This document shows positions 757-62,830 of a stretch of 64,000 nucleotides of DNA, one piece after another (position 1 is the first letter of the stretch; every line of letters begins with the position of its first letter). The position numbers and the translations under genes are program-made. The stretch comes from Tubulanus polymorphus (lineage: Eukaryota > Animalia > Nemertea): the NCBI RefSeq assembly GCF_964204645.1, contig NC_134029.1, positions 13,728,850-13,792,849 of the forward strand, read 5' to 3'. The notes below the pieces were generated by a model that searched no databases, was not told the DNA's origin, and worked only from the letters and a program-made list of their open reading frames with translations.

Positions 757-2056
757 ATGGCTAGACATATGAAAAAACATGATGAAAATTATAAACCCCC
801 TAAACTAAACTGTCCAAAATGTAATAAATTATTCTCAAGAAATTATGTTTAAAAAAATTCAGAGAAGTGTAGAATTAATGACACAACGGTTAATGTTGAT
901 AGTAACGAAAGTAATAGTAATTCTGTTGAAGTTGAACCTGAAATTATTTGGAAAAGACCTTTTTTATTCTATGATAAGGATAATATAAAAGATCATTTCT
1001 GTGAGCCTTGTCGAATAAAATATAGCCCTGAAAATATAGAAGATTGGAGAATCATCAATTTCGTAAAGTACATATAGATAAAATTTCTAATAAATTTGAA
1101 ACTGAATTCAATGAAAGAAAAAATAATTTATTAGAAAAAATAAAATATGAGAAAACGTTACCAGATAATAAAGAAACAGTTGAAAAGTTAGAAAAACAAT
1201 ATAATGAATTAACAAGAAAAACATATTATTGTAAATATTGTAAATTGATTATTACAACAAGTAATTCAAATCTACATAATAGAACAATAAAACATAAAGA
1301 AAACGTAAGAAAATACAAGGAGCTTAATGAAGATCTATTACCAATAAATTATAAACAAAAATGCCCACAATGTAATTATGCGACCTTAAGACAAGAAGGT
1401 ACTGTGTTATTTTGTAATGAATGTGGATGGCAAAAGAATTTATGGGGTGATGAAAAAACTAGAGATTTTCTCATAGAACCAAAATTAAATTATCTAGATG
1501 AAATTTTTAAAATATTTTCTATAGAAGATCATACACCAGAATATATGCAATGGCTTGAAAAAATGAAAATGATAGAAAATAAAAATGGTGAAATAACTAA
1601 AAAAGATATTATAAAAACAATTATTCCATCAACATTTAACACAAAACAAAAGAAAATGTATTTATATTTATTATTTAATGATTATTATGAAAAACCTAAA
1701 TTAACAGAAAAAGATATGGAAAATATAAAAAAAACATTCAAACAAATATTATCAAAATATTATCAAATATTATGTATCATTTGGAAAATAGAATAACAGA
1801 TTCAATTAATTATGAATTCTTTTTAAATAAGATTGTAAATTATTTAAACATCGATATTATAATTCCATATAATTTTGATGAATTAACAAACAAAAAGAAA
1901 CAAAGAGAGCGAGATGAAATGTGGCACAATATAACACGTGATTTAAATGAGAAAAATGAAATGGAAGAACCTAAACAAATTATACAAGAACAATTAAATG
2001 AAAATGAAGAAGCCAAAAGTGATTTCGAGTATGATGATATTGATTTTCTGTTTTAA
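757..2056 (+). pseudogene. zinc-finger/VLTF3-like protein, frameshifted and lacking its start
   Basis: ORFs 1044-1796 and 1772-2056 match the intact 429-aa ORF 53336-54625. Confidence 0.8.
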
Positions 2057-5000
2057 TGGCCATAAGGTAATGTTTTTATACCATCATCTAAAATATGCCT
2101 TTTATCATCAAATGGATTCAAACTAGTTTTTTCAACTTCATTATTGTACATCTCGTGATTTTCTGATCTTAAACAATTCATTTTATGTTTCATTACAATT
2201 GAGTTATATAAACACTTTATATAATCTTGAAATTCTATATGTTTATCAACCACATGTTTTGTTATTCCTTTTAACTTTTTAGCTTCATGATCTTTTGTTC
2301 TGTAACTATACATTTTACTTCTTATCCCAACAAATTCAATCATTTCATCACCCCCTAATTCATCTTTAAATTTACCAGGAATCTTTTTATTATCATTGCT
2401 AAATAGTTCATGATCTTTGGGATAATTGCTAAAATCAAAATGATGTTTTAATGTTTTTAAGTCTTTTGTTTTGTCATTTGACTTGATTTTTAGTATGTAA
2501 CTGTCAGTATTTTTGGCAATTAATGGAAATCCACAGTTAAATGTACCATCTTCAGTTGATAAATCATAAACATAATCTGATGGGTTATATATTTCAAATA
2601 AATCTTTAACTTCTTCTGTTAATTCTTTTTCTACATGCCTTAAATTAAAACAATTTGGTTTAGATTTAATTAATTCTATATTCATATTAAATTCTAATGA
2701 ACTGCATAATATATTTAATCCTGATATAGCAACTTTTCCTTTCTATGCAAAGGTTATCTTTTTATCCTTTGTAAATTTTTTAGTGCCATCTGCGGCATAG
2801 AATCCAATGAAGAACCACTTTCTTAAATTATTTTTTGCATTTAATACATAATCTGGTACTATCTTTTCTTTTGTTGAAGTATCACTTTTCACTATTGCAT
2901 GAATATAGAATTCATCATTATATTTTATAGCAAAATCTTTAGGATTATTTACAAGTATTCTATAAACTGCTGATGATTTCATAACATCTATGATTTTAAA
3001 TGTTTTATGAGAATAAACTTCTTCACAGAATTTCTTAATTCTTTCTAATAATTTCAAATCTTGATTGCATAAATACCAACATTATCTATTACCCCAAACA
3101 TATTTATACACACCTGCTGAACCATCACCCATGACAAATCCTTTGATAAAATATTCTTTTTCTTCTAATGTTTCAGGTTCTATATTATAAATATTATCAA
3201 TAATTTCATCAAATGACATATGATTCATTCTTTGGAAAAATCTTTTATGTAATTATTCATCTCCAATTTTTATATCAGTTGGTTTTATTTCATAACCATT
3301 TCGTTTAATCAAACTATGATTTTCTGTAACATCTACAAACCCTAATTTAGTTCTAACTCTATAGATTTTCTTATTTGTTTTAAGTCTAATAATATTCTTT
3401 AATTTTTTCCATCCATTTCTTGTCCAAACATCCATTAATTCATTTATTTGTATTAATTCTTTTTCACCATATGAAATATAACATTCATTTTGTTTTGGAA
3501 TTATTTCTGAAATTCTTCTTATCAATATTTTATCGTTACATTTTAATAATATTAGGGTGTCAGCTGTTACAGAATCAAAATATGATATTTCAATATGCTT
3601 TTCCCCAAAAAGTGGTTGTAAAACATTATAATAAAAATCATACATTAATAATTTTGATACTTCTAAAACAGTTGAACCAATGAATATAGGTTTATTAAAT
3701 TTCATTGACGTTCTTTTTAATTTAACTGCTGTTAAATAATCTTCAAATCTTTTATTTCCTAAATGTCTAGGACTTGATTGTAAATGTCTTAATCGTTCAG
3801 AATTATTTACTAATTCAATATCATTTCTATTTCTAATATTTTCACATGTTTTACCATAAAAACTATTATTCATTAATTTGAATAAATCTTTTTCAAAATC
3901 TGTTTTTGATATGGTTCTCTGTTGAGTATTGAAATCTATATATTTTTCTAACCACTTCGATTGATTAAATTCAATATATCTATGTACTTTCTTTAATTTC
4001 ATTCCTTGTTTTAGATAAAATTTTAACACTCTATAATGAACAATATAATTATATTTATTATTTTGAGTAAGTATTAATTTTTCTGTAAAAACATGATCTT
4101 TCGGTTTTATTTTCTTCTGGTATTTACTTAAATAACTATCATCTACAGTTAAATGTTCTGGGCAATAAGGTAAGTTTCTTGTTTTAAACTTTATATTTTC
4201 AGGATATTCTAAATCAACTACAAAGAAATAACCAATTGGTGCTTCATCTTTTAAACTCGCAATTTCGCTTTCCATATCAGTTTTATCACCATTTTCAACT
4301 TCTGTTAATATAAAATTTTTATATGGTTGAGGTTGCATCATTGCCCAACCATATAAATTATTGGCGTCAATATATAATAATTTATATTCATCATTTGCTT
4401 TAAAATACCTATCTCCCATAACACCACTAATTCCACCTCTAATTGATTTTTCAAATAATAAAACCATGTCTGGTTCTTTTAATAAATCTAATTCTACATT
4501 TGTGTATTTTAAACCACATTGCCAGGTTAAACCAGGACTAGAGTAGCAATAACAAGGATCAACATTAAAATGATTCAAATTTACCTCTCTAAATTTTTCA
4601 AATATGTCAGCCAATATCATAACATCTGATTTTAAATATAAATCAACTAATTCACCATGATTTTTGATCTTAAAATGGTTCCAAATATTTAATGTTCTAT
4701 TAAACACTTCGTCTTTCACATACTCCTCTTTTAATTGATCATAAAATTGATCTTTTAATAATTCTGTTACATTAAAATCATTGTGTGTTTTATAAAATGA
4801 ATAAGGAATTGCACCTTTATATCTCAATAATTTAAAATCTTGTTCATTTGGATAATAATATCGAGTTATTATAAAATCATTATCAACTAAACTTTTTGAT
4901 AAATTATCTAATGAACTTGCTAGAAATCTATAAGAATCTAAAAATCTAATGCAACCAAATTGAAATGAAATAAAATTTTCAGATGTTTTAGCTAATAGTT

Positions 5001-6957
5001 TAAAATCATATTTTCTTACATTTACACCATTCATAGCATTATATTCTTCTATTTCTTGATTAATTGCGCCCAATTTTCCCGATAATTGTTTTATAAATAA
5101 TAGATGGGTATCATAGCCTGATAAATTATGAAATAATATTGGTACGAAATTAACTTTCTTAGCTTGTAAATTGCAATCTTCATGAGCAGCTCCACGATAT
5201 TTTGAATTTAAATGATCGTGATCTCTAACTTTTTTATCAAATGAATAAAAACGTTTTTCACAATAACAACAATGAGTTGCATAATTAAAATCAATTTCAT
5301 CTTCTTTTGTCATAACTATTCTTTTATTTTTGTTAAATAATTTTGCAAAATCACTTTCTAATTCAATCATTTTGTCACAAAAATCATTAACTACACTTTC
5401 ATATAATTCAGGATAATTTGATTTGATGTAAATTCCATAAGCAGCAGCTCTTTGGTGAACTTTTTTAATTGTATTTATAATGGATGGGTCTTGTGTTGTG
5501 TCTTCATTTAATTCATTTCCTTTATCCATTGATTTTAATAATTGCTTTTTGTTATATATTTCTTTTCTATCTTGATCGGTTAATTCTTTATTCAACGATT
5601 CAAAATCCCCATAAATTACAAATGGAACAATATTCTTAAATTTTTGATTAGTAAATTTCAATTTATAATCTTTTTCCGTTGGCATTATTAATTTACAAAA
5701 ATCTTTATTATCACATAATTCTTTATGTTTTAATAATGTATTCTCAGTCATAAATTTAGATAAACATTTTCTACATAAATAAATTTTATTATGGTGATCA
5801 CTTTCTGTTCTAAAGAATAAATCAATTTGTTTCATCATCATAATATTCTGTTAAATATAAAGCTTCCAATGTATAATCTTTAATATTTTCACCTTTTGTA
5901 TTTGGTAATTGCATTAATTCAAATACATTTATTTTTAAATTATTAACTTTTTCTATTTTGGGTATCATTTTTATAGTTACTGGATATTGATCAATTTTAT
6001 ATAATGTTTCATATTTCCGGTAATATGTTATTCTACAAACATTTTCCAGTGTTGGATGTAAGCAACTAATAATTGACCATTGAAAACATTTATTATCTTC
6101 ATTTTGAATATTTATTACTGCTTTTGTTGTAAATGGTAATTTAATATAAGATGATGCTTTAATATCCTTTTCTGTTGTAAAGTTTGAATCATTTTTAAAC
6201 ATTTTATTACTTTTTGATGTTTTATTTCTTTTTGTATTATAAACATTTAAATCTAAGTATATAATTTCATTCAATGTTAAGCCAGAACCCTCAAAATATC
6301 TTTCTTCAATATGACGTTTAAATTCATTAAATATTTTTTCTAACTTCTCTTTTATTTGTATTTTTGAAATTATTTCTTCAGAAAGTGTTTGAATATTATA
6401 ATCCATTTTATCTTCTGACTTTAAAAAACTTACTTTTCCCAGAGATACTAATTTTTGGATATTCAACATCTGTTATCAAATCTAGTATTTTTTCTATTAT
6501 TTCATTAAATTTACTATAATCTTCTATTGTTGTACCTTTAAAAAATCTAAATATAATAGCTGCAGGACCAATTTTACTACGTAATCTTTCTAATATTTCA
6601 ATTGTATCTTTTATTTCTAGTGAATCAATATAATTTCTAACATTTTCCATGTAAGGTTTATTTGAAAAGGATTTAGTTTTTGAAGTTGGTTTTTTTACTT
6701 GTTGAGGTTTATCATCAAAATAATCTTTTCCTTACAAACTTCACATTTTATTTCATCCACATTCATATTTTCTAATCGTTCTTTTCTTTCACATTGGAAT
6801 TTTCTGGAGTTTCAAAATCTATAACATTTTTTATATGATTTGAAGATTTTTCATATTTAGATTTATTAGATTTATCGATGTATTTTTTACAATATGGGCA
6901 ATAATATTGATTTTTATTAACATTATTGTTTTCTGTCTGGTACTCACTCTCTCCCAT
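2053..6957 (-). pseudogene. polB: protein-primed DNA polymerase B (type A), intein-containing, disrupted
   Basis: Exo motifs YGDFES and FHNLSGYD; Pol motifs YIDANNLYG, KLMNNSFYGK, YFD|TDS and KLKG. ORFs 6772-6957, 6408-6650, 5822-6469, 3253-5841 and 2053-2685 are colinear with 49395-53339. Confidence 0.95.
2509..3573 (-). mobile_element. intein with LAGLIDADG homing endonuclease, 1065 bp (355 codons), three in-frame stops
   Basis: In-frame insertion between YFD and TDS. Block A SVTADT, block B VDVTENHSL, LAGLIDADG helices FIKGFVMGDG and FFIGFYAADG, block F VYDLSTEDGTF, end IAKN followed by Thr. Absent from homologues at 52883/52884 and 30075/30076. Confidence 0.93.
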
Positions 6958-7042: not shown

Positions 7043-8030
7043 GGAGTATTCTTCTTTGAATCCTTCGATCTGATATCCTCGAATTATCTATTCTTCGATG
7101 TTTAGTAACTCATCTGCAGACAGCTCGCCTTCACTCCTCTCAGTTTTCGGTACTCTACAATTGTCGATGAATCTGTGTACCCACGCATGAACGCGCAATA
7201 GACGATTCCATTGTGAATATCGTTCTGGATTCAAACGCCAATCTTCGTCAGTTTCTTTAAGTTTGATAAGCATCGTGAATTATGTCTCCCTGGAGATGAA
7301 TTCTTGCTTCAGTTCTTGTTTGGCTACCTGGCTTGTCTCGACTCGATTCACTGACCACTCGTCTTCATTCTTCACGAGAAATCTTGGACCAGTCCACCAT
7401 ATACTATTTTCATCCGCCAGTTCATCTGCGGTCATACCCTTCGATGCTAAATCGGCAGGATTAGCTTTCGTAGGTACGTATCTCCATTGTGTTGGTCTGG
7501 TCTTACTTTGAATTTCACCGACTCTGTGTGCTATAAACGTCTTCAGAGTTCTACTTCGGTTTCTAATCCACCATAACACATTCAAACTATCTGACCAGAA
7601 GATGACTTCTTTCATATTCATCTCGTATACCTCAGCAATTCTTTCAACCAGACGCAATCCTAGAATAGCTCCCATCATTTCAAGTCTTGGTATGCTACCA
7701 GACATTAAAGGAGCGACTCTAGACTTAGCTGCGATCATTCGGCTTGAAACTTCGTCTGCACCCTTGTACGTGCACACCACGTATACAACTGCACCGTTAA
7801 CATCTTGTGATGCGTCTACAAATGCGTGTAGTTGGTGTTGCCTCCGATGCGACTCGTATGCACCTAGGTATTCTTATCTTGTGCAGATCGTCTAGTTCTG
7901 CAAACCATTTCTTTATCTTCTTCTCAAGATCTGGATTCAGCTCTTCGTCCCATTCTACACCGTCCACCCACATCTCTTGCATGATTATCTTAGACCGTAA
8001 GATAAATGGAGTGAGAAATCCGAGTTATCT
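7043..8030 (-). mobile_element. Bel/Pao LTR-retrotransposon pol fragment (RNase H region)
   Basis: AAKSRVAP, SIPRLEMMGAILG, WSDS and WRYVPTKANPADLASKG motifs; higher GC than the flanks. Confidence 0.9.
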
Positions 8031-19200: not shown

Positions 19201-19825
19201 CATTTTATATTTTAAATATTTTTTCTTTTCTATCTTTAAGTCACTTTCAAATTCTAATATTTGGTTTTCCAAATATAATTTTAATTTAGTTTTATTTATA
19301 TCATGAGGAATAATATCAATATAATCAACTTTATCAACCATTTATTTAGAAAAGAAATTACTTATTAGTAAATTTATAAGCAACAAATAATACAATAACT
19401 GTTCCACCTAAAATCCAAATTATTTCATATCTCTTCTGTTCATTACTTGGTGTATAATAATCTGATAATTTAGGTTTATATAGATGTAATTTTTCTTTAT
19501 TTGTTACTGCTTTATATAAACTCATAGCTTCATCGACTGATTGAAAATCTCTATGTGTAATTTTCTGATTATATAATTCTTTATTGATCTCTATATTCTT
19601 CTGCAGCTTTATTATATTTCTCTAACGCTAAATTATGTCATCTTTGTTCTCCTAACGAACTATTTTTATCAATATATTTAAATAAATATCCACCACCAGT
19701 AAATGCCAAAGCGTTAACAATTGCCGATCCTATAATAGTTATAATTGCAGATGCCATTTATTTATTAAGAAATTACGCGTTAATAGGAGGAATATATTTT
19801 TGTTTTTCCAAATAATCAATAGTTG
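16260..19825 (-). mobile_element. degenerate Polinton-like copy 3, structural gene block on minus strand
   Basis: Broken homologues of 56099, 56541 (19015-19341), 56992 (17685-18867) and 58337 (17083-17616); cut by the Penelope-like element at 19826. Confidence 0.85.
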
Positions 19826-19938
19826 AACGATGACCACACTCAAACGTGGTGAACGGATAATAAGATAAAATCCCACTATTTACAGATTAAAAGAATTAAA
19901 AACCAGAATTTATTTATTAAATCTCAAATATTTAAAAG

Positions 19939-19980
19939 ACACGACGTTTCGATCTCACCCTAGAGATCATCGTCAGGTGT
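19939..19980 (-). ncRNA. minimal type I hammerhead ribozyme in the PLE pseudo-LTR
   Basis: Reverse complement ACAC-CTGACGA-T-GATCTC-TAGGGT-GAGATC-GAAAC-GTC^GTGT: both core boxes, 6-bp stem II, 4-bp stem I, palindromic ACGT stem III. Confidence 0.85.
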
Positions 19981-20057
19981 GAGAAATAGACTAAAAACAG
20001 GGGTATATATACAGAGGAGGACAGGTTAATTGAGTAAATTGGTGAGTGAGTAAATAA

Positions 20058-21282
20058 TTAGTGTTTGGCAAGGCATGAAGTAATATACTTAGAAAGAAGG
20101 GAATTATGCAGAGAAAAGCCATTATTTAAATTGGTACTAATATCTGAGTGACGAGTAATTAGGGCAGACTCAACTATGTGGCGTTTAGTGTAATTGCTGG
20201 AAGTATAAATAATTTCGGCTTTATCAAAATTAAAACGATGACCAGTGTTCCAAACGTGATTGGCTACGCCACTAGCCACTTTTTGATTTATTATATCCTT
20301 TTTGTGTTCCGAAATTCGAGTTTTTAAATCACGACCAGTTTCTCCAAAATAAATTTTATCGCAGCCAAAACAAGGAATTTTGTAAACTCCGCAGTCCAAA
20401 GGTTTAGATTGATTGTTTTTAACCAAAGTCTTACTAATTTTGTTTTCATACGTGAAAATGATTTGTTTATCCAATAAAGGGAGAGAGTGACGAAACTTTT
20501 CCAAAACAGGTACATACGGAACTACAATGAACTCGGAAATGTGTTTTTTTATTTTCTGGAGGTTTAGAATTGAAGAAGGTACGTTTAGCCTTAGAAATAG
20601 CGATTTTCAAAATGTGATCAGGGTAAGCCAATTTTCTAAGAGAGTTGGATATATGGTCAAATTCAGCCGAAAGGAAGGTTTCATCGCAGATCCGCAGTGC
20701 ACGGAGAAAGAGGCCTTGAGCGAGACCGATTTTGATTGATTTGGCAGTAAACGAAAAGAAGTGAAGGTATGCCTCGGCATTAATAGGTTTACGGTAGATT
20801 GAGAAAATCAAATGAGAAAATTTATTGTGAATTAGAACATCTAAAAACGGAATTTGGTCATTTTGGTCCCATTCAAAAGTGAATTTCAAAGATGGATATT
20901 GGGAGTTGATGAAGTCGATAAAAGAGGTAAGATCAAAATTATCAGAAACTAAGCATAGAATGTCATCTACATATCTAATCCAAAAGTTAGGTTTAGAGCC
21001 AGCGTACTTAGGGAGAATTTCGGATTCAAAGTGTTCAAGGAAAAGATTAGCCAAAATCGGGGATAATGGGTTACCCATAGCGAAACCGAAAATTTGTTCA
21101 TAGAATTTGTCTTGGAATTGGAAATATAAATTGGTAGTACAGAGTTCCAAAAGTTCAAGTAAACATTCTACAGGAATTGGGAGATCAAGATTGGAGTCCG
21201 GGAGTTTTCTTGTTAAGAAATTGAAAGTTGGTTCCAATGGTATATTAGTGAACAGGGAAACAGCGTCGAAAGATATAAATTT
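20058..21282 (-). pseudogene. Penelope RT plus GIY-YIG endonuclease, frameshifted near 20500
   Basis: ORFs 20467-21237 and 20058-20504. Confidence 0.9.
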
Positions 21283-22317
21283 CGTGTCTTTTAAATATTT
21301 TAGATTTAATAAATAAGTTCTGGTTTTTAATTCTTTTAATCTGTAAATAGTGGGATTTTATCTTATTATCCGTTCACCACGTTTGAGTGTGGTCATCGTT
21401 CTATTATGTTACCCTTGGATTTTAATTTGGCTTTGAAATTCTTATTCATAACCTTTCCTCATTTGATCTTTGCTTTTCGAAAATACGAATCTGCTGCTTA
21501 TAAAGCTCACAAATCCAAAGAAAACGTCATATTTCTTCAAAAATGTCTCCAATAACAGGTTATTCCTAAATCTCTGAATTGGTTGAATGAATTCAAATCA
21601 GATCAACCATTTTCCAATGAAGCAGCATCTCATCTAAGACATTGCATTTTGGAAGCAAAAGAAACTACCAACTCCAATTTCTATAAAATGCGACAAGCAG
21701 AACGTTTTCTCAGACACCATATACCTGATGGTTTCCTTTGGCACTCTCTTCATTCAGGCATCAAGAATCTTTGCGTGGTACATCGTCTAAAGAAAAATTC
21801 GCATTTCTCTTCCATTCTGATTAAATTAATCGACAACAGCCCTTGGACCAAATTTTGCGCTACTGATAATGTTGTCAATCTATCTTCGGCTAAATTAACC
21901 AAAACACAAATTCAAGTTCTCGGTTTAGGATTAAATTTCTCTCTCCCGCATATAAACCAACACATTCTGGATTTCGTTGAACGTATGGAAAGATCTCCTC
22001 CGGCTAGTTTTCATTACAATTTTATATTCATGAATTTGGACACCATTTGGAATACCCTTCAAGGTCAATCTAATCAGTTCTTTCCTCGGAGATTTTCGAT
22101 TGCTCTCCAGGAACTTAAATTCATCAAAACCATCCGCATCTCCAAGGCTGATAAAGGCGGCAAAATTGTTATTCAAGATTTGATCAATTGCAATTCTAAA
22201 TTGTTTGCTATTCTCGATGATTCCAATTTCTACAAATCCATCAAAAACAACCCTTTGAAAAAGATGCAATCAGCTTTTAATTTAGGTTTAAAAAACATCT
22301 CTAAGAAATTTCCTGAC
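21283..22317 (+). mobile_element. Penelope-like retroelement, 5' part (pseudo-LTR and ORF start), interrupted by the complete Polinton
   Basis: VVNLSS, LGLGLNF and KADKG motifs; the frame continues after 42612. Confidence 0.9.
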
Positions 22318-22840
<523 letters not shown>

Positions 22841-25099
22841 AATGTGTAAAATCAATTTAAAAAAAAAATTTAGTATTAAAATGGAAACAAATAAGTACTA
22901 CTGTTCAACATGTAAAATCAATATAGATAAATCCCAAAAATCAAGACACGATAAAACTAAAACACATTTAGAGAATAAATTAAAACTAGAATATGAAGAT
23001 GATATATTAGAATCTAAATTAGATGAATTAAAGAATGAAAAAGAAATATATAAATGTGATACATGTAATCAATCATTCAGTGATAAAAGATATTATAAAG
23101 AACATTTAAAATCTTAAGTCATATTACAAATAAGAATAATGATATTTTAGGTGAAGATTATTTTGATAATGATAACGATAAGAAACATAAGACAATTAAA
23201 AGAATAAGAAATAAATTAAACAATAAAAGACCATACATGGAAGATGTAAGAAATTATATTAATTCATTAGATAATAAAAAAGATATAGAGATAACCGAAG
23301 CATTTAAAGGTGATATTGGTCCAGCAGCTATTGAGTTTAAATCTTATAAAGGAAAAACATTAGAAGAAAATAAAAAACATTTAGAAAATATGAAAAATAT
23401 TATGAAAATAATCACTGATGTTGAATACCCTAAAATTAGTATATCAGTTAAAGTAAAGTTTATAAAATCTGAGGATAAACCAATATATAATATAAATTCT
23501 CATTCACAACATATTATATCTAAACAACATATAGATGATAAATTTGAATTATTATGTTATAATGAAGTAAAAACTAAAATAGAAGAGAAATATTTTGAAG
23601 GATCTGGTTTAATATTTGATGAAATAATATTTATGACTTTACATGTGTATAACACAAAATATAATAAGTTAACTAAATCAAAACCAATAGATGAAAATAA
23701 TGTACATATTACAAAGAACCAGATATTGAAGCATCGAGTTATATTAGACTACCATTTAAAACTAATGCTGTTATAAATGTACAAAATTTTGATGATAAAT
23801 GTTTTCTATGGACAATTATAAGTTGCTTACATCAAACAGAATATATTACACATAGTTTTAGATTAACAAATTATAAACAATTTGAAAATAATTATAAGAT
23901 AGATAAGTATCCAGTTAGAATTAAAAACATCCAAAAAATAGAAAGAGATAATAATTTAAGAATAAATGTATTTGATTTAATAAAATTACCAAAAACAAAA
24001 GGCAACAATATAAAACATTTTACATTAGAACCTTTATACCTATCAAAAGATTATGATTCAAATGATGTTATAGATATATTATATTATGAAAATCATTATA
24101 TGTGGATTACACAAATCGATTTATTCTTTCGAACAGAAAGTGATCATCATCGTAAAATTTATCTATGTAGAAAATGTTTACATAGATTCAGTAATGAAAG
24201 TACATTATTAAATCATAAACAATTATGTGATAATCATGATTATTGTAAATTAGTTTTACCAAATGAAAAGGATAAAATATTAGAATTCAAAAATTATGAT
24301 TACAAAAATAAAGTACCATTTGTTATATATGGAGATTTTGAATCATTAAATAAAGAATTAACTGATCAAGATAGAAAAGAAATATATTATAAAAGAAAGA
24401 AATTAAATTCTAATGAAAATGATTTTTCAGATGAACCACCAAAAACAAATACAATTTAAAAAATTCATCAATCAGCTGCTGCTTTCGGGTTATATAAAAA
24501 ATCTGATTATCCTGAACTAATTGAAAGTGAATATTATCATTATAGAAATGAAAATGTAATCAATCATTTTTGTGACTTATTAATTGAATATGAAATAAGA
24601 TTTAGTAAATTATTGAATATAAATAAAGAAATAATTATGACAGAAGAAGATAAAGAAGAATTTGTGTTTACAGGTAAATGTTATTATTGTGAAAAGATAT
24701 TTAATTATAAAGATAAAATATAGCTGCAAAGCAGCGATAACGGGTTTTCTGCACAGTCTTAGAATCCTGTTCAACGGTGGATTTCAACAAAGCATTTGAT
24801 AAGGCTCAACATCAGCCTTTACTAAACAGGCTATTAGGAAACAGTATCAATGATAGGTCGCCCAAATGGCTCAGCAGTTATCTCTGAACGGAAACTTGTA
24901 ACCGAAATCAACGTAACGCCTCATCTTGGAATGAGACGGTCTAACTAGTGGAGTCACGCAAGGTAGTATCCTAAGTCGTCTTCTGTTTAATGTCCTGACA
25001 AATGACATACACAGTAATCCAAAATATACCAGACCGAGTAAATTTCCAAAACGACCTTTACACACTGTTCGACCAAAAAACTTAATGTTCCGACAAAAC

Positions 25100-25397
25100 C
25101 ACGGGCGACAAAACCAAAATTATGAATTGTCGCGGGTGACAAAACCAAAATATTGAATTGTCACGGGTGACAAAACAAAAATAATGAATTGTCGTGGGCG
25201 ATAAAACCAAAATAATGAATTGTCGCGGGCGATAAAACCACAATAATGAATTGTCGCGGGCGTTAAAACCAAAATATTGAATTGTCGCGGGCGATAAAAC
25301 CAAAATAATGAATTGTCGCGGACGGCAAAAACAAAATATTGAATTGTTGCGTGCGACAAAACCAAAATAATGAATTGTCGCGGGCGACAAAACCAAA
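25100..25397. repeat. 31-bp minisatellite, first block
   Basis: Unit AATTGTCGCGGGCGACAAAACCAAAATAATG. Confidence 0.95.
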
Positions 25398-26766: not shown

Positions 26767-29460
26767 AAGAATTGTCGCGGGCGACAAAACCAAACTAATG
26801 AATTGTCGCGGGTGATAAAACCAAACTATGAATTGTTGCGGGCGATAAAACAAAAATATTGAATTGTCGCGGGTGATAAAACCAAAATATTGAATTGTCG
26901 CGGGCGACAGAACCAAAGTAATGAATTGTCGCGGGCGATAAAACCAAACTATGAATTGTCGCGGGCGATAAAACCAAAATAACGAATTGTCTCGGGCGAC
27001 AAAAACAAAATATTGAATTGTCTCGTGCGACAAAACCAAAATAATGAATTGTCGCTGGAGATAAAACCAAAGTAATGAATTGTCGCGGGCGATAAAACCA
27101 AAATATTGAATTGTCGCGGGAGACAAAACCAAACTAGTGAATTGTCGCGGACGACAAAACCAAAAAAAGAATTGTCGGGGCGACAAAACCAAAATAATGA
27201 ATTGTCGCGGGCGACAAAACCAAAATGGTGAATTGTCCAGGGGACAAAATCAAAATGGTGGATTGTCGTGGGCGACAAAACCAAAATAATGAATTGTCAC
27301 GGGCTAAAAAACCAAAATAATGAATTGTCGCTGGCGATAAAACCAAAATAATGAATTGTCTCGGGCGACAAAACCAAAATAAAGAATTGTCTCGGGCGAC
27401 GAAACCAAAATAAATAATTGTCGCGGGCGATAAAACCAAAAAAATGAATTATCGCGGGCGATAAAACCAAAATATTGAATTGTCGCGGGCGACAAAACCA
27501 AACTAATGAATTGTCGCGGGCGATAAAACCAAACTATGAATTGTCGCGGGCGACAAAACCAAAATAATGAATTATCGCGGGCGATAAAACCAAAATATTG
27601 AATTGTCGCGGGCGATAAAACCAAAATAATGAATTGTCGCGGGCGATAAAACCAAAATAATGAATTGTCGCGGGCGACAAAACCAAAATATTGAATTGTC
27701 GCGGGCGACAAAACCAAAAAAAAATTGTCGCGGGCGACAAAAACAAAATGTAAAACCAAAATAATGAATTGTCGCGGGCGACAAAAACAAAATATAAAAC
27801 CAAAATAATGAATTGTCGCGGGCGACAAAAACAACATATAAAACCAAAATAATGAATTGTCGCGGGCGACAAAAACAAAATATAAAACCAAAATAATGAA
27901 TTGTCGCGGGCGACAAAACCAAAATAATGAATTGTCGCTGGAGATAAAACCAAAGTAATGAATTGTCGCGGGCGATAAAACCGAAATATTGAATTGTCGC
28001 GGGAGACAAAACCAAACTAATGAATTGTCGCGGGCGACAAAACCAAAAAAAGAATTGTCGGGGCGACAAAACCGAAATATTGAATTGTCGCGGGAGACAA
28101 AACCAAACTAATGAATTGTCGCGGGCGACAAAACCAAAAAAAGAATTGTCGGGGCAACAAAACCAAAATAATGAATTGTCGCGGGCGACAAAACCAAAAT
28201 GGTGAATTGTCCAGGGGACAAAATCAAAATGGTGGATTGTCGCGGGCGACAAAACCAAAATAATGAATTGTCGCGGGCTATAAAACTAAAATAATGAATT
28301 GTCGCTGGCGATAAAACCAAAATATTGAATTGTGCGCGGGCGATTAAACCAAAATAAAGAATTGTGGCAGGCAACAAAACCAAAAAAAAAATTGTCGCGG
28401 GCGACAAAACCAAAAAGAAGAATTGTCGCGGGCGATAAAACCAAAATAATGAATTATCGCGGGCGATAAAACCAAAATATTGAATTGTCGCGGGCGATTA
28501 AACCAAAATAATGAATTGTGGCAGGCAACAAAACCACAAAAAAATTGTCGCGGGCGACAAAACCAAAATAATGAATTGTCGCTGGAGATAAAACCAAAGT
28601 AATGAATTGTCGTGGGCGATAAAACCAAAATATTGAATTGTCGCGGGCGACAAAACCAAAATATTGAATTGTCGCGGGCCACAAAACCAAACTAATGAAT
28701 TGTTGCGGGCGACAAAACCAAAAAAAAATTGTCGGGCGACAAAACCAAAATAATGAATTGTCGCGGTCGACAAAACCAAAATAATGAATTGTCGCGGGCG
28801 ATAAAACCGTAATAATGAATTTTGGCGGGCGAAAAAACCAAAATAATGAATTGTCTCGGGCGACAAAACTAAAATAATGAATTATCGCGGGCGATAAAAC
28901 CAAAATAATGAATTGTCGCAGGCGATAAAACCAAAATAATGAATTGTCTCGGGCGACAAAACCAAAATATTGAATTGTCGCGTGCGACAAAAACGAAATA
29001 TAAAACCAAAATAATGAATTGTCGCGGGCGACAAAACCAAAATAATGAATTGTCGCAGGCGATAAAACCAAAATAATGAATTGTCTCGGGCGACAAAACC
29101 AAAATATTGAATTGTAGCGGGCGACAAAACAAAAACAAAAATTGTCGCGGGCGACAAAAACAAAATATAAAACCAAAATAATGAATTGTCGCTGGCGATA
29201 AAATCAAAGTAATGAATTGTCGTGGGCGATAAAACCAAAATAATGAATTGTCTCGGGCGAAAAAAACAAAATATTGAATTGTCACGTGCGACAAAACCAA
29301 AATAATGAATTGTCGCGGGCGACAAAACCAAAATAATGAATTGTTGCGGGCAATAAAACCAAAATAATGAATTGTCTCGTGCGACAAAACCAAAATAATG
29401 AATTGTCTCGGGCGACAAAACCAAAATAATGAATTGTCGCGGGCAACAAAACCAAAAAAA
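26767..29460. repeat. 31-bp palindromic minisatellite, main block (~2.7 kb)
   Basis: Tandem units with core TTGTCGC-GG-GCGACAA. Confidence 0.97.
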
Positions 29461-30634
29461 AATTTAAATCTAGAAATCTAGCATACTGCCCAGAACATAA
29501 AACTGTAACGCATAAAGAATTATCAAATTATCAAAAAAGAATTAAACCCGAAAATCATATTCATACAGAAAAGTTAATGGTAACTCAAGAAGATAAATAT
29601 GATTATGTAGTACATTATAGAATGTTGAAGTTTTATCTAAAACAAGGAATGGTTCTAAAAAAAGTACATAGATATATTTCATTCAGTCAATCTAAATGGT
29701 TAGAAAAATATATAGATTTTAACACCAAACAGAGAACTGAAGCTAAAACTGATTTTGAGAAAGATTTCTTCAAGTTAATGAATAATGCATTCTATGGTAA
29801 GACTTGTGAAAATATTAGAAATAGAAATGATATTGAGTTAGTTAGTAATGGTAAAAGGATAAGGCATTTACAATCATATCCTAAGTTCTTAGGTAACAGA
29901 ATATTTGATGAAAATTTAGCTGCAATTAAATTAGAAGAACATCTATGAAATTTAATGAACCAATTTATGTTGGAGCTTCAGTTTTAGAAATATCAAAGCT
30001 ATTGATGTATGAATTCTATTAAATGTATTACAACCTCATTTTGGAGAAAAGCATATAGAAATTCTATACTTTGATACTGACAGTTACATATTAAAGATAA
30101 AAACTAATAACATAACTGATGATTTAAAAACATTAAAACATCCTTTTGATTTCAGTAACTATCCTAAAAATCATGAATTGTTTAGCAATGATAATAAAAA
30201 GCTTCCCGGGAAGTTTAAGGATGAATTAGGCGGTGAAGAAATGATTGAATTCATTGGTATTAGATCTAAAATGTATTCATATAAAACTAAAGAACATGAA
30301 GCTAAAAAGTTAAAAGGAATTACTAAAAGTGTAGTAGAAAAGAATATTCATTTCAAAGATTACATCAATTGTATATTCAATGAAGAAGTTAGAAAACATA
30401 AGATGAGATGTTTAAGATCTGAAGATCATGAAATGTTTATTGAAGAAATAGAGAAGATAAGTTTGAATCCATTTGATGATAAAAGATATATTTTAGATGA
30501 TGGAATTCATACAGTTGCTTATGGTTGTAATTTAGATGAATATCTAAAATTTAAAAGAGAAGAAACAAATGAAAATGAGATTATGAAAAGGATTCTAACG
30601 TGTTAATCAATTTTAATAAAAATATGTCATTAAA

Positions 30635-42163: not shown

Positions 42164-42606
42164 TATTCATTTATATGTTATTCATGTGTGTATATATATG
42201 AATGAATATATATGAATTATTTCAATCACACTTTACTAACACTTTTAATGTTTAAAAATCTAACTCATACAAATATGAATATTGAAATATGTTTAAAATA
42301 TATCTATTTATCTATCTATTAGAGCTCGACCTCCGACCTCTGGCTTGAAACCCCACTTTTCTAATTACTTTTATATGTTGTTCATATATATTTTATCCAT
42401 GTAAATGAATATTTTAAGAGTAATAGGGGAATGTGGCTTTCATATCAAAGGTTGAAAGGGTGAGTGAGTAAAAAATGAAAATAACAATAATTTCTAGTTG
42501 AATTAGGAGTGTGCGCGACTAATTCAACTGGAAATTATTGTTATTTTCATTTTTTACGAGCTCGACCTTTCGACCTTTGGTATGAAAGCCACATTCCCCT
42601 ATTACT
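42164..42606 (-). repeat. right TIR with terminal palindrome 42419-42606
   Basis: Reverse complement of the left TIR. Confidence 0.93.
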
Positions 42607-48319: not shown

Positions 48320-48383
48320 TAATGAATTGTCGCGGGCGATAAAACCGTAATAATGAATTGTCGCGGGCGATAAAACCAAAATA
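48318..48383. repeat. two units of the 31-bp minisatellite at the pPolB breakpoint
   Basis: AATGAATTGTCGCGGGCGATAAAACC occurs twice. Confidence 0.9.
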
Positions 48384-49394: not shown

Positions 49395-52300
49395 ATGGGA
49401 GAGAGTGAGTTCCAACTAGAAAACAATAATGTCAATAAAAATCAATATTATTGTCAATATTGTAAAAAATACATCGATACATCTCATAAAACACGACATG
49501 AAAAAACTGCAAATCATATAAAAAATGTAATAGATTTTGAAACTCCAGAAAATTCCAATGAAAGAAAAGAAAGATTAGAAAATATGAATGTGGATGAAAT
49601 AAAATGTGAAGTTTGTAATGAATTTATAGTAAAAAGGAATTATAATAGACATCTCGAATCACAAAAACATTATAAAAATTTGAGTAATAATGTTTTAGGA
49701 TTAGAATATTTTGATAATAAACCTCAACAAGTAAAAGAATCAACTTCAAAAACAAAATCCATTTCAAATAAACCTTACATGGAAAATGTTAGAAATTATA
49801 TTGATTCACTAGAAATAAAAGATACAATTGAAATCTTAGAAACATTACATAGTAAAATTGGTCCTGCAGCTATTATATTTAGATTTTTTAAAGGTACAAC
49901 AATAGAAGATTATAATAAATTTAATGAAATAATAGAAAAAATACTAGATTTGATAACAGATGTTGAATATCCAAAAATTAGTATCTCTGGGAAAGTAAGT
50001 TTTATAAAGTCAGAAGAAAAAATGGATTATAATATTCAAACACACTCTGAAGAAATAATTTCAAAAACACAAATAAAAGAGAAGTTAGAAAAAATATTAA
50101 ATGAATTTAAACGTCATATTGAAGAAAGATATTTTGAGGGTTCTGGCTTAACATTGAATGAAATTATATATTTAGATTTAAATGTTTATAATACAAAAAG
50201 GAATAAAACATCAAAAAGTAATAAAATGTTTAAAAATGATTCAAACTTTACAACAGAAAAGGATATTAAAGCATCATCTTATATCAAATTACCATTTACA
50301 ACAAAAGCAGTAATAAATATTCAAAATGAAGATAATAAATGTTTTCTATGGTCAATTATTAGTTGCTTACATCCAACAGAAGAACATGTTTATAGAATAA
50401 CAGATTACCGGAAATATGAAACATTATATAAAATTGATCAATATCCAGTAACTATAAAAATGATTCCTAAAATAGAAAAAGTTAATAATTTAAAAATAAA
50501 TGTATTCAAATTAATGCAATTACCAAAGACAAAAGGTGAAAATATTAAAGATTATACATTGGAAGCTTTATATTTAACAGAATATTATGATGATGAAAAT
50601 GCTATAGATTTGTTATATTACAAAAAAGATGAAAATGAACATTATATGTGGTTAAAACAAATTGATTTATTCTTTAGAACAACAGAAAGTGATCATCATC
50701 GTAAAATTTATCTATGTAGAAAATGTTTATCTAAATTTATGACTGAGAATACATTACTAAAACATAAAGAATTATGTGATAATAAAGATTTTTGTAAATT
50801 AATAATGCCAACAGAAAAAGATTATAAATTGAAATTTACTAATCATAAATTTAAAAATATTGTTCCATTTGTAATTTATGGGGATTTTGAATCGTTGAAT
50901 AAAGAATTAACTGATCAAGATAGAAAAGAAATATATAACAAAAAGCAATTATTAAAATCAATGGATAAAGGAAATGATTTAAATGAAGACATAATACAAG
51001 ACCCACCAATTATAAATACAATTAAAAAAGTTCATCAAAGAGCTGCTGCTTATGGAATTTATATAAAATCAAATTATCCCGAATTATATGAAAGTCAATA
51101 TATTTCTTTTATAGGTGAAAATGTAGTTAATTATTTTTGTGATAAAATTATTGAATTAGAAAGTGATTTTGCAAAATTATTAAACAAAAATAAAAGAATA
51201 GTTATGACAAAAGAAGATGAAATTGATTTTAATTATGCAACTCATTGTTGTTATTGTGAAAAACGTTTTTATTCATTTGATAAAAGAGTTAGAGATCATG
51301 ATCATTTGAATTCAAAATATCGTGGAGCTGCTCATGAAGATTGCAATTTACAAGCTAAAAAAGTAAATTTCGTACCAATATTATTTCATAATTTATCAGG
51401 ATATGATACCCATCTATTTATAAAACAATTATCGGGAAAATTGGGCGCAATTAATCAAGAAATAGAAGAATATAATGCTATGAACGAAGCAAATGTAAGA
51501 AAATATGATTTTAAACTATTAGCTAAAACATCTGAAAATTATATTTCATTTCAATTTGGTTGCATTAGATTTTTAGATTCTTATAGATTTCTAGCAAGTT
51601 CATTAGATAATTTATCAAAAAGTTTAGTTGATAATGATTTTATTATAACTCGATATTATTATCCAAATGACCAAGATTTTAAATTATTGAGATATAAAGG
51701 TTGCAATTCCTTATTCATTTTATAAAACACATGATGATTTTAATGTAACAGAATTATTAAAAGATCAATTTTATGATAAATTAAAAGAGGAGTATGTGAA
51801 AGACGAAGTTTTTGATAGAACATTAAATATTTGGAACCATTTTAAGATGACATATTTGAAAAGTTTAGAGAAGTTAATCTAAACCATTTTAATGTTGATC
51901 CTTGTTATTGCTACTCTAGTCCTGGTTTAACCTGGCAATGTGGTTTAAAATATACAAATGTAGAATTAGATTTATTAAAAGAACCAGATATAGTTTTATT
52001 ATTTGAAAAATCAATTAGAGGTGGAATTAGTGGTGTTATGGGAGATAGGTATTTTAAAGCAAATGATGAATATAAATTATTATATATTGACGCCAATAAT
52101 TTATATGGTTGGGCAATGATGCAACCTCAACCATATAAAAATTTTATATTAACAGAAGTTGAAAATGATGATAAAACTGATTGGGAAAGCGCAATTGCGA
52201 GTTTAAAAGATGAAGCACCAATTGGTTATTTCTTTGTAGTTGATTTAGAATATCCTGAAAATATAAAGTTTAAAACAAGAAACTTACCTTATTGCCCAGA

Positions 52301-53339
52301 ACATTTAACTGTAGATGATAGTTATTTAAGTGAATACCAGAAGAAAATAAAACCGAAAGATCATGTTTTTACAGAAAAATTAATACTTACTCAAAATAAT
52401 AAATACAATTATATTGTTCATTATAGAATGTTAAAATTTTATCTAAAACAAGGAATGAAATTAAAGAAAGTACATAGATATATTGAATTTAATCAATCGA
52501 AGTGGTTAGAAAAATATATAGATTTCAATACTCAACAGAGAACAATATCAAAAAATGATTTTGAGAAGGATTTTTTTAAGTTAATGAACAATGCATTTTA
52601 TGGAAAAACATGCGAAAATATTAGAAATAGAAATGATATTGAATTAGTGAATAATTATGAAAGATTAAGGCATTTACAATCAAGTCCTAGACATCTAGGA
52701 AATAAAAGATTTGAGGATTATTTGACCGCGGTAAAATTAAAAAGAACGTCAATGAAATTTAATAAACCAATATTTATTGGTTCGACTGTTTTAGAAATTT
52801 CAAAGCTATTGATGTATGAATTCTATTACAATGTATTACAACCTCATTTTGGAGAAAAACATATAGAAATCTTATATTTTGATACTGATGCGTACATATT
52901 AAAGATAAAAACTGATAACATAACAAAAGACTTAAAAACATTGAAACATTATTTTGATTTTAGTAATTACCCTAAAGATCATGAATTGTTTAGTAATGAT
53001 AATAAAAAGATTCCTGGTAAGTTTAAAGATGAATTAGGAGGTGATGAAATGATTGAATTTGTTGGGATAAGAAGTAAAATGTATAGTTATAGAACAAAAG
53101 ATCATGAAGCTAAAAAGTTAAAAGGAATAACAAAACATGTGGTTGATAAACATATAGAATTTCAAGATTATATAAAGTGTTTATATAAATCAATTGTAAT
53201 GAAACACAAAATGAATTGTTTAAGATCAGAAGATCATGAGATGTACATTAATGAAGTTGAAAAAACTAGTTTAAATCCATTTGATGATAAAAGGCATATT
53301 TTAGATGATGGTATAAAAACATTACCTTATGGCCATTAA
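49395..53339 (+). pseudogene. polB: pPolB (type A), intein-free; 1-nt insertion near 51701 and ~58-bp deletion near 51848
   Basis: ORFs of 776 aa and 433 aa; all Exo and Pol motifs present; motif C reads YFDTDA. Confidence 0.95.
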
Positions 53340-54625: not shown

Positions 54626-54682
54626 TTATTAGGGGAAAAAATTACTTGTGGTGATGAGTGTAATTTTTTTATGTTATAAATA
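54626..54682. promoter_or_regulatory. divergent promoter containing an inverted copy of the terminal promoter motif
   Basis: 54623-54660 is the near-exact reverse complement of 49360-49397. Confidence 0.7.
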
Positions 54683-55479: not shown

Positions 55480-55495
55480 TTTTTTCATTATATAA

Positions 55496-56074: not shown

Positions 56075-56098
56075 ATGCATAATTTTTTTGCTAAATAA

Positions 56099-56521: not shown

Positions 56522-56540
56522 TAATTTTTATTCTAAATAA

Positions 56541-59815: not shown

Positions 59816-61063
59816 ATGAGTGGGAGTTATATAAGTCCTTCTAAGATTTCTAGAATATCTAATGCTATTAAAGCAGAAAGATCACATCATATAATTACTC
59901 ATAACCCTTCAAATATTAATCCCGATGAAACTTTATATGTTAGAATTCCGAGATTAACACAAAATACTTTTTATGTTCCAAACAGTATTTATTTATCAGC
60001 TGATATAAAAGTATCTGGTAATAATAATAATTATGTCGTTGATAATGTTGGAAGATATTTGATTAAAAAGTTAACAATAAAGATTGGTCCGGAAACAGTT
60101 TTCTCATTAGATGATTATAATTTATTTATGCATTATAAAGATTTATGGTTAACAAAAGAAAATAGAAATAATATGATATTTCAGGGTATTCAATCAGAAA
60201 ACCAAAATAAATTAAGATCAGAAGCTAATAGCGCAATATTAACTAATGATGTAGATAAATTGATAAAAAGTATATATGGAAGCAAATATAAAATTCCATT
60301 AGACTTTGAATTGATAAATAATAATGCACCTTTATATAAATACGCAATTCAAGAAGATATTATATTTGAGATAACATTTGCTCCTGTAAATGAAATTGTA
60401 ATATCTAGCGTTAATAAAGATATGAATTATAAATTATCGAATATATGTTTAGAATATGATACAGTAACTGATGAAAATATTGCTAGAACAATTCAAACTC
60501 AATACAATCAAGGATTTTCATTATTATATGATTATATTGATAAATTTAAAACTGTAACTATTAATGCAAATGATGAAATAATAAATGAGAATATTAACTT
60601 CCCAAGAAGATCTATTAAAGGTATATTAATATTTTTTACTATTGGAACGTATACTAATGGTGCAATAAATGTTGACAATTATTATAATCCTGAAATAACA
60701 AAAGTAGAAATAACTATCGAAGGAATAGCAAATAAAATATTTTGTCAAGGAATGAGAATGATTGATCAATGGGTAGAAATTAAAAAACATTTTATGAATG
60801 AAAAAGTAAAATCATTTGAAAATTGTAACATTAATCAAATTGATTATTATACCGGTAATAAATTTGCATTATGGGTAGATTTTAGAACAACAGAAGATAA
60901 TTCATTACATGGTTCTGGAAAAAAACTACAGAACACTAAAGATGGAATACAATTATTCATGAAAAAGAATAAAGGAATCAAAAATTTTAAAATGCACATT
61001 TATATTATATCTGATGCGCAATTAAATATTGTAAATTCACAATTAGATAGTATTCAATATTAG
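59816..61063 (+). CDS. putative double jelly-roll major capsid protein
   Basis: 415 aa, beta-strand-rich, highly conserved between copies, next to integrase and ATPase. The fold is inferred. Confidence 0.7.
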   Translation: MSGSYISPSKISRISNAIKAERSHHIITHNPSNINPDETLYVRIPRLTQNTFYVPNSIYLSADIKVSGNNNNYVVDNVGRYLIKKLTIKIGPETVFSLDDYNLFMHYKDLWLTKENRNNMIFQGIQSENQNKLRSEANSAILTNDVDKLIKSIYGSKYKIPLDFELINNNAPLYKYAIQEDIIFEITFAPVNEIVISSVNKDMNYKLSNICLEYDTVTDENIARTIQTQYNQGFSLLYDYIDKFKTVTINANDEIINENINFPRRSIKGILIFFTIGTYTNGAINVDNYYNPEITKVEITIEGIANKIFCQGMRMIDQWVEIKKHFMNEKVKSFENCNINQIDYYTGNKFALWVDFRTTEDNSLHGSGKKLQNTKDGIQLFMKKNKGIKNFKMHIYIISDAQLNIVNSQLDSIQY

Positions 61064-61093: not shown

Positions 61094-62221
61094 ATGGGTG
61101 GTAAAAAATCTCCTAATACTAAAGAACAATATTTAAGAAATTTATATTACAACCCTGAGAGTTCGGTTGCTTATTCTTCTACCAAACATATATGGCGTCA
61201 AGTAAAACAAGATAAATTAGATAAGATAATCCCACAAAATTTAGTTAAATATAAAGATATAAATGAATTTATGTTAGAACAACCAACATATACAACACAT
61301 AAAAAAATTGTTAGAAAATATAAAACTCGTAAAACTATGGTAAGTTATGTAGATCAACAGTGGCAAGGAGATTTAATTGATATGAAAAATGTTAAGAAAG
61401 ATAATGATGATTATTGGTGGTTATTGAATATAATTGATATTTTTAGTCGTTATGTATGGAGCTTCCCACTTTATAGAAAAGATGCTGTACAAACATCAAA
61501 TGTTTTAAGAAAATTTCTTTCAGGTGGTAAACTAAAACGAGAAAAAATTCAATTTGATGATGGAAAAGAATTTGATAATTCATTAGTTCATGGACTTTTA
61601 GATTTTCATAATATTAAATATTTTTCAACAAAATCGGATAAAAAAGCAGCAGTTGTTGAACGATTTAATAGAACATTAAGAACAAGAATGTGGAAATATT
61701 TTACAGCAAATAATACTTTTAAATGGATTGATGTTTTACCAAAATTGATAGAAGGATATAATAATTCTTATCATTCTTCTATTGGAATGAAACCTATTGA
61801 TGCTAGAAAACCTGAAAATGCTGAAATTGTTTGGAATAATTTATATGGAGCATTTCTTGTAGATGATTTTGGTGAACCTAAATTTAAAGTTGGTCAAAAT
61901 GTTAGAATTTCTAAGTATAAAAAGATATTTGACAAAGGATACGATCGAAATTTTACTAGAGAAATATATAAAATAAAAAAGGTAATAACAACAAAACCAT
62001 ATGTCTATAAATTAGAAGATTTAGATGGTGAAGAAGTTGATGGTTACTTTTACGAAGAAGAATTAAGTTTAACTACTGAAAATCTAGAACAAGAATATAA
62101 AATTGAAAAAGTACTAAAAACAAAAACTGTTAAAAGAAAAAAATATTCTTTAGTAAAATGGGTTGGATGGCCAGATAAATTCAATGAATGGATATTATCA
62201 AGTAAAATTAAAAATATATAA
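61094..62221 (+). CDS. retroviral-like (rve) integrase with C-terminal chromodomain
   Basis: DDE residues in WQGDL, QFDDGKEF and VVERFNRTL; YKIEKVLK...LVKWVGWPDKFNEWI. Confidence 0.96.
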   Translation: MGGKKSPNTKEQYLRNLYYNPESSVAYSSTKHIWRQVKQDKLDKIIPQNLVKYKDINEFMLEQPTYTTHKKIVRKYKTRKTMVSYVDQQWQGDLIDMKNVKKDNDDYWWLLNIIDIFSRYVWSFPLYRKDAVQTSNVLRKFLSGGKLKREKIQFDDGKEFDNSLVHGLLDFHNIKYFSTKSDKKAAVVERFNRTLRTRMWKYFTANNTFKWIDVLPKLIEGYNNSYHSSIGMKPIDARKPENAEIVWNNLYGAFLVDDFGEPKFKVGQNVRISKYKKIFDKGYDRNFTREIYKIKKVITTKPYVYKLEDLDGEEVDGYFYEEELSLTTENLEQEYKIEKVLKTKTVKRKKYSLVKWVGWPDKFNEWILSSKIKNI

Positions 62222-62830
62222 ATGAATAAGGAATTATTTATATTTGAGCCTCATAATATGTTAATTTCTGGCGTAACAAATTGTGGAAAAACTTATTTTA
62301 TATTAAATTTATTAGAAACTGTTTATGAAAACTATTTTGATAATATAGTATTATTTTGCCCAACCTATGAATTTAATCAAACTTATGATAGAAATATTAC
62401 TAGGAATAATAAATTTATTATATTAGATCCTAAAACAGTAAAAGAAAATTTAGATAATTGTATAAAAATAGCAATTGATATTTATAAAGGATCAAATACA
62501 TTATTTATCATAGATGATTGTGCTAATCTACATGATTCAAAAGTTAGAGAAAGTGAGTTATGTTATTTAGCTTTCTCTGGTAGACATTTTGGGATAACAA
62601 CTTGGGTTTTAAATCAAAAATATAATTCAATTGTTAAAGACTTTAGAGAAAACATTAGATTTCTAGTTTTATTCTACAATAAAGATAGAAAATCGATGAA
62701 AAATGCACTTGAGGAAAATGATATTATTCCACATGATTTACATAATGAATATATGGATAAGTTGAAAAATATTAAAAGATCAAAATTACTATTTAGATTA
62801 CAACACCCATTTAAATATGAATTTATTTAA
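62222..62830 (+). CDS. A32/FtsK-HerA family DNA packaging ATPase
   Basis: GVTNCGKT, LFIIDD and SGRHFG...NQ. Confidence 0.93.
   Translation: MNKELFIFEPHNMLISGVTNCGKTYFILNLLETVYENYFDNIVLFCPTYEFNQTYDRNITRNNKFIILDPKTVKENLDNCIKIAIDIYKGSNTLFIIDDCANLHDSKVRESELCYLAFSGRHFGITTWVLNQKYNSIVKDFRENIRFLVLFYNKDRKSMKNALEENDIIPHDLHNEYMDKLKNIKRSKLLFRLQHPFKYEFI

Follow-up and report, generated by a model that had tools for sequence, protein, structure and literature searches.

An endogenous virus-like DNA polymerase whose catalytic motif is split by 355 additional codons raises the questions of what the extra segment is, where it came from, and whether it moves among copies of the gene that it interrupts. The window, that is, the whole 64-kb stretch of DNA that was analysed, carries this polymerase on its minus strand (Table 1), and a match to PF03175 places it in the protein-primed family B (pPolB). 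The insert is exactly 1065 nt long and in frame, with GAT (Asp) at one junction and ACT (Thr) at the other, splitting the pPolB motif YFD|TDS. The first-pass annotation had described just such an exact insertion, together with homologues at 52883/52884 and 30075/30076 that lack it, and codon-level alignment to these two empty copies (e1 and e2) bears it out: both are colinear with the interrupted pPolB on either flank, and the insertion can be regarded as a confirmed observation. The reading of e1 is itself broken by a frameshift near 51725-51846. The interrupted copy had also been called dead, correctly. Stops stand at codon 107 (3255-3253), codon 164 (3084-3082) and codon 277 (2745-2743) of the insert, and because the first of them truncates the polymerase ahead of the second Asp of motif C, both the polymerase and the intein of the window are dead, this intein copy being a pseudogene (its sequence was analysed with X at the three stops). 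GC is 24% and GC3 13% in the intein, with the same values in the extein, and the insert is therefore no fresh arrival from a genome of different composition.

Table 1. Features of the 64-kb window that bear on the insert, its empty counterparts and the surrounding element
Feature	Position	Strand	Basis or remark
PF03175 polymerase feature	2053..6731	-	Pfam PF03175 E 1e-17
Intein with LAGLIDADG endonuclease, 355 codons, three in-frame stops	2509..3573	-	motifs, Pfam, model
Block A, Ser1 nucleophile (SVTADT); one substitution private to the window copy	3535..3573	-	
Block B with TxxH (VDVTENH)	3304..3348	-	
First LAGLIDADG helix (block C), Asp150	3115..3153	-	Asp in 9/9 pPolB inteins
Second LAGLIDADG helix (block E), Asp262	2779..2817	-	Asp in 9/9 pPolB inteins
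Blocks F and G (VYDLST...FNCGFPLIAKN), terminal Asn, penultimate Lys	2509..2577	-	
+1 Thr of the C-extein	2506..2508	-	
Upstream flank, excess mostly synonymous divergence from the closest empty copy	3574..3918	-	
Downstream flank, excess divergence from the closest empty copy	2347..2508	-	
Endonuclease VII/HNH-like motif inside pPolB	5170..5271	-	motif; PF02945 in relatives P0009, P0073, P0083
Empty pPolB copy e1, same family as the intein-bearing copy	49395..53339	+	92-94% nt; site 52883/52884, reads YFDTDAY
Empty pPolB fragment e2, second family	29459..30606	+	about 78% nt; site 30075/30076, reads YFDTDSY
Double jelly-roll major capsid protein, sister element	59816..61063	+	Foldseek E 4e-18 to PBCV-1 capsid
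rve integrase with chromodomain, sister element	61094..62221	+	
A32-type packaging ATPase, sister element	62222..62830	+	

By its motifs and its predicted fold, the insert classes as a class 1 intein with a LAGLIDADG endonuclease. The features by which it was first recognized are all present in the translation: the SVTADT start with its Ser, the TENH of block B, two LAGLIDADG helices (GFVMGDG and GFYAADG), block F (VYDLST, with its Asp), and a KN end before the +1 Thr. The penultimate residue is Lys, not His, here as well as in the homologues P0005 and P0007 and in four giant-virus relatives. Pfam profiles for both the splicing and the nuclease parts match the window copy (Intein_splicing, E 8.8e-7; LAGLIDADG_3, E 0.003), each under its curated cut-off, and the homologues P0004 and P0006 lie above the Intein_splicing cut-off. 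A lack of Hint-fold similarity had been named as grounds for abandoning the intein call; an AF2 model of the window intein (pLDDT 91.7, pTM 0.91) instead predicts the fold, with TliVMA as the top Foldseek match in the PDB (E 1e-16, TM 0.67), accompanied by PhoVMA, PI-PfuI and PI-SceI and followed by I-DmoI. Among viral proteins it is best matched by the DNA polymerases of Pandoravirus, Marseillevirus, Megavirus and a phycodnavirus. A phmmer search of PDB sequences with the read-through protein gave no matches, and a profile search for the window intein was swamped by exteins. The class 1 assignment thus draws on an in-frame insert absent from homologues, the motif residues and the predicted Hint fold, and that of the endonuclease on its two helices, the catalytic acidic residues and the block D Lys; with homologues at the same site, these features bear out the original call.

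The interrupted gene was thought to belong to a Polinton-like virus, an assignment upheld by the sister element (49395-64000), which shares 92-94% identity in pPolB with the intein-bearing copy. This element holds the Polinton/Maverick gene set of pPolB, rve integrase, A32-type packaging ATPase and double jelly-roll capsid, the last being a 415-aa protein with a predicted double jelly-roll (model pLDDT 89). An adenovirus-type cysteine protease had no Pfam match among the 23 ORFs scanned, in an element that extends past the window edge, and terminal repeats or a target-site duplication were not identified in the window, where copies are nested and rearranged. Nearly throughout, the window is a patchwork of rearranged, nested Polinton copies of at least two families, and every pPolB copy in it is broken.

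Several other features of this nest were recorded. It resembles a silencing cluster or an insertion hotspot. A 31-bp tandem repeat occurs at 25102-25397, 26769-29457 (the main array, with about 88 copies) and 48318-48377; it adjoins two pPolB copies, one of which (46448-48319) ends in the repeat ~25 nt before the intein site, a contact that may be due to chance given the many breakpoints in the window. Between the 31-bp arrays lies a 155-bp tandem repeat (4.8 copies, 25472-26215), and the two repeats may form one non-autonomous mobile element. Pieces of Penelope-like retroelements (19400-22900 and 42169-43687, head-to-head or inverted) lie among the Polinton copies, a Pao/BEL fragment (Peptidase_A17, E 5e-23) occupies 7280-7873 within the cluster, and in both sister elements a zf-U1 zinc-finger gene stands tail-to-tail with pPolB (53336-54625 on the minus strand, 1032-2056 on the plus strand).

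Intact relatives of the intein exist. Among longer proteins, the best eight of 60 matches, at 39-61% identity, are pPolBs whose intein occupies the D|T site and has no stops, and the remaining 52 are mostly primer-dependent PolBs, along with two type II topoisomerases. Eight pPolB clusters beyond that of the window thus hold stop-free forms of the intein at this site. Two further pPolB cases are P0368 (73% identity, a fragment) and L081 (two stops). Single-protein scans of IMG/VR and of metagenomes found nothing; alignment scans kept 80 of 240 viral loci, 33 metagenome loci and five from GTDB, with L081 as the sole pPolB. None of the 80 kept IMG/VR loci has the intein in a pPolB, in a collection that is poor in animal Polintons. 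Plasmid records gave no match and phage records one weak match (26%). A search of 50% representatives returned, in the best 150 of 1792, one pPolB, 104 other PolBs, two topoisomerases and 43 unclassified proteins, and probably undercounts, as filled pPolBs can cluster under empty representatives. The type II topoisomerases P0021, P0047, P0421 and P0485 carry related inteins at D|TDG or D|CDG sites, which by their sequences may represent non-allelic spread of the same intein family. In P0012, a primer-dependent PolB, a dihydrofolate reductase domain (Pfam E 9e-60) lies inside the protein in addition to the intein.

The nine pPolB inteins are 41-86% identical among themselves, and all nine retain the LAGLIDADG Asp pair and the block D Lys; such retention speaks for an endonuclease that has stayed in use. 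In most pPolB pairs, intein and extein identities are close (61/59, 66/69 and 86/84), and this tracking points to long residence of the intein in pPolBs. P0005 departs from the pattern: its extein is only 22-29% identical to other pPolBs, but its intein is 44-50% identical to theirs and nests beside the window intein (SH-aLRT 93 in one tree; 96.6/91 on Hint columns). With so distant an extein and so close an intein, it is likely that the intein has jumped at least once between Polinton pPolB classes.

Reads show that the window copy is one of many. Four read runs from one study contain 35-38% of sampled words of the window sequence; in a set of four runs aligned to the window, three cover the insert, and at the empty-copy junction reads and contigs break into intein sequence. 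At the three stops, 104/107, 216/220 and 228/236 reads differ from the window copy; the stops are therefore private to it, and the intein forms a family of many copies. A DNA run that carries the same species label but belongs to another study has a mean depth of 233 on the intein versus 474 on the N-extein. The former (1,934 million letters read) corresponds to ~12 intein copies per 100 Mb genome. The intein is thus common among pPolB copies, of which about half are filled, a rough ratio as the flank depth takes in more distant families.

If the intein homes, filled and empty alleles should differ in a particular way around the site, co-conversion tracts being the trace that homing leaves (PMC4059233). 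The window copy and e1 differ at 34 of 180 nt at the site and at 50 of 1276 nt beyond it (Fisher 1.3e-11; P of 3e-6 or less in all five window sizes tried). Farther upstream no 180-nt window has more than 13 mismatches to e1, with up to 18 per bin in the next gene. Near the site 44 synonymous and 14 non-synonymous codon differences fall in 169 codons, against 12 and nine in 325 outside it; as the excess is mostly synonymous, it reflects old functional divergence rather than decay. A similar pattern is seen in the P0004 cluster, where 15 listed of 136 members comprise seven filled, six empty and two without coverage of the site. Filled members differ from one another at 1-3 of 120 nearby residues, and all six empties differ from P0004 at 13-20 of the 120, with 7-49 differences elsewhere. 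Motif C is altered in all six (YFD|TDAM, YGD|TDAM or YTD|CDSM versus the filled YMD|TDSF), and in two of the six the +1 residue itself is changed. Two empty pPolBs, P0069 and P0071, have Cys for the usual Thr of the DTD motif (YTD-CDS). The P0007 cluster behaves differently. Its 15 listed of 121 members include five filled and one empty, P0083, which is identical to a filled allele around the site and has three differences in the whole protein. Support for spread by homing is indirect: two of three families carry the flank divergence signature, and the third lacks it. A divergence peak can also arise where a large insertion itself hinders recombination on either side.

Nor does target divergence account for every empty allele. 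Of 460 reads at the third codon past the empty site (52890), the first base is of the filled type in 202, that of e1 in 74 and a different one in 184; with the filled-type codon this common at empty sites, divergence of the target cannot explain all empties. A rule that TDA marks resistance was rejected, as P0368 reads TDA and carries the intein. A three-way comparison for the direction of conversion was mixed downstream and, upstream, was broken by an indel in e2.

We consider it quite probable that the insert is a LAGLIDADG intein in motif C of a multi-copy Polinton pPolB, in what is likely an invertebrate nuclear genome, and that it is likely spreading by homing. Where a copy is functional, its Hint domain is predicted to excise itself by way of Ser1, the block B His, the terminal Asn and the +1 Thr. 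Splicing would restore the YxDTD motif required for polymerase function, yielding an active polymerase and a free endonuclease. The endonuclease would then cleave the corresponding site in pPolB alleles that lack the insert, and repair templated by a filled copy would bring in the intein with some flanking DNA; empty alleles with a diverged target would escape cutting.

Where such homing would occur is a separate matter. It may be confined to co-infections, operating between virus genomes that are free and replicating, with integrated copies as passive passengers and no cutting of chromosomes; we hold this to be a serious contender, at somewhat under an even chance, and it overlaps the main explanation in that it concerns only the location of homing. 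Homing has been reported between co-infecting prasinoviruses (PMC5371798), and the broken state of every pPolB in the window fits passive integrated copies. The window sequence also appears in no listed RNA dataset, which has no bearing on expression. Against these points stands the lack of any pPolB intein among the kept IMG/VR loci noted above, though this is not direct evidence in so unrepresentative a collection.

The intein might, alternatively, be real but now merely inherited with its Polinton lineage, the empties arising by precise loss or ordinary recombination and the flank divergence arising because the insert blocks gene conversion. The near equality of intein and extein identity in most pPolB pairs is what such inheritance predicts, and it would also accommodate the half of copies that are empty, some with filled-type flanks, and the decayed copies (that of the window, and L081). 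It fits less well with endonuclease catalytic residues retained across lineages 41-61% apart, with the crossing into the distant polymerase of P0005, or with changes in empties that fall on the catalytic motif itself, and we judge it improbable relative to continued homing.

The host had at first been read as apparently an animal. The window consists of mobile DNA only and holds no host gene. Its neighbours and relatives, on the other hand, point to animals. Among 120 listed relatives of the Penelope-like reverse transcriptase, all named matches are from animals (crayfish, coral, beetles, ants, rotifer and Hydra); the best named one is from crayfish at 42%, and closer matches reach up to 66%. 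The only eukaryote-named capsid relative is from the bivalve Mactra (38%), and the intein relative P0008 lies in the bin of a clam symbiont. On the strength of the neighbouring Penelope-like and Pao retroelements and these named relatives, an invertebrate host of the element seems likely. A real, homing intein could instead belong to a protist, fungus or oomycete that harbours Polinton-like viruses; the absence of host genes leaves room for this, and pPolB2 with HNH is reported from oomycetes too (PMC10748475), but the exclusively animal names among the reverse transcriptase relatives, the Pao peptidase in the window, and the bivalve and clam-symbiont connections make it rather unlikely. Chimeric assembly and in-frame insertion by chance can both be set aside as extremely improbable, since reads cover the insert and both junctions and eight independent proteins carry the same insert at the same site.

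As to the source, the first-pass annotation named motif C as a known intein site of archaeal and giant-virus family B polymerases, and the site between Asp and Thr of YxDTDS agrees with this. Quick trees were built without P0013, P0019, P0023, P0042 and P0061 (boundaries not found) and L081 (stops). In the endonuclease tree (170 columns) all nine pPolB inteins group together as a clade (90/86), to which P0011/P0012 are sister (98.8/93), followed by four PolB inteins from giant-virus metagenome-assembled genomes (MAGs; 98/93). A link to giant-virus PolB inteins is seen in this tree, but the Hint-only tree gave no resolution and one quick whole-intein tree disagreed, placing long-branched phage-like PolB inteins as sister. 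The four giant-virus-MAG inteins are 36-45% identical to the window intein and end in FN[ST]GF[PE]LIVKN, and the sole IMG/VR match to a DNA pattern for this intein ending is also a giant-virus-MAG contig. On these sequence comparisons, the intein donor was likely a giant-virus PolB. Two giant-virus-type PolB inteins, P0033 and P0034, are 47-49% identical to pPolB inteins in the Hint part and have the same FNCGFPLI ending, with a middle of only 16-17% that is possibly a swapped endonuclease. The history probably ran from a giant-virus PolB (YGD|TDS) through long residence in pPolB2-type Polintons to crossing into another pPolB class.

A bolder version, which we advance tentatively and think on balance doubtful, is that this giant-virus-derived intein acts as a protein-level gene drive in the animal nucleus, cutting and converting integrated Polinton copies in the germline, with changes in motif C allowing escape from cutting; the escape changes would be YxD-TDA, YTD-CDS and switches of serine codon. 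If so, animal nuclear genomes would be seen to house an intein family for the first time, and gene exchange between giant viruses and animal Polintons would be implied. Even on the main reading, finding a splicing-type intein at the active site of a Polinton polymerase brings a new group of viruses within the range of inteins, and animal nuclear DNA as well should the host prove to be an animal. Because filled copies are conserved and the polymerase would need splicing, replication of these Polintons in host cells presumably involves protein splicing; since two genomes must meet in a cell for homing, the link to giant-virus inteins suggests past co-infection. With filled and empty copies in one genome, drive and resistance become directly measurable.

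Surveyed viral inteins of eukaryotes come from large DNA viruses (PMC5784728), and metazoan genomes are said in reviews to be without inteins (PMC8529194). Among the titles listed by searches of open-access text, no report of a Hint-bearing intein in a Polinton was found. The word "intein" is absent from the main text of PMC10748475, PMC8502044, PMC11131425 and bioRxiv 10.64898/2026.10.13.758929 and from the text supplements of the first three; "LAGLIDADG", "homing" and "Hint" are absent from the main text of PMC10748475, and PMC12220804 contains a general mention of inteins. The main text and two supplements of PMC10710043 mention neither Polintons nor metazoans.

The closest structural matches, TliVMA, PhoVMA, PI-PfuI and PI-SceI, combine Hint and double LAGLIDADG domains as the window intein does (TM up to 0.67), but these archaeal and yeast inteins reside in other host proteins and are only 11-18% identical to it. 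The PolB inteins of Nucleocytoviricota (phycodnaviruses, Mimiviridae, Pandoravirus and Marseillevirus) lie at YGD|TDS, the same motif and position as here, which we take to be the site labelled Pol-c. They share with the window intein the Ser start, terminal Asn, +1 Thr and double LAGLIDADG, and the four giant-virus-MAG inteins share in addition the FN[CST]GF[PE]LI ending. Unlike the giant-virus inteins, which sit in PF00136 polymerases, the window intein sits in the protein-primed PolB (PF03175) of a small integrating virus, and the pPolB inteins form an endonuclease clade of their own. For Klebsormidium, Tetrabaena and Honda(ea), inteins have been described in viral-like DNA polymerases that lie on nuclear scaffolds (PMC10710043); as here, the intein is reported in a nuclear genome inside an endogenous viral polymerase, but those hosts are algae and a labyrinthulid rather than a likely invertebrate. 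Polinton pPolB2 proteins with HNH/VSR nuclease inserts (PMC10748475, PMC11071308) are the same kind of polymerase, and the window pPolB also has an HNH-like motif. Those inserts, loosely ascribed to "intein invasions" (PMC11071308), are described as bare nuclease domains without Hint and outside motif C, unlike the window intein. Finally, Polintons/Mavericks such as the adintoviruses (PMC8502044) have pPolB, rve integrase, A32 ATPase, double jelly-roll capsid and many integrated copies, as does the element here; no intein is reported for them in that source, whereas this element carries one. The insert is a genuine intein allele, of a kind familiar from viruses but in a new class of host; it is multi-copy and polymorphic, and its genome is probably that of an animal.
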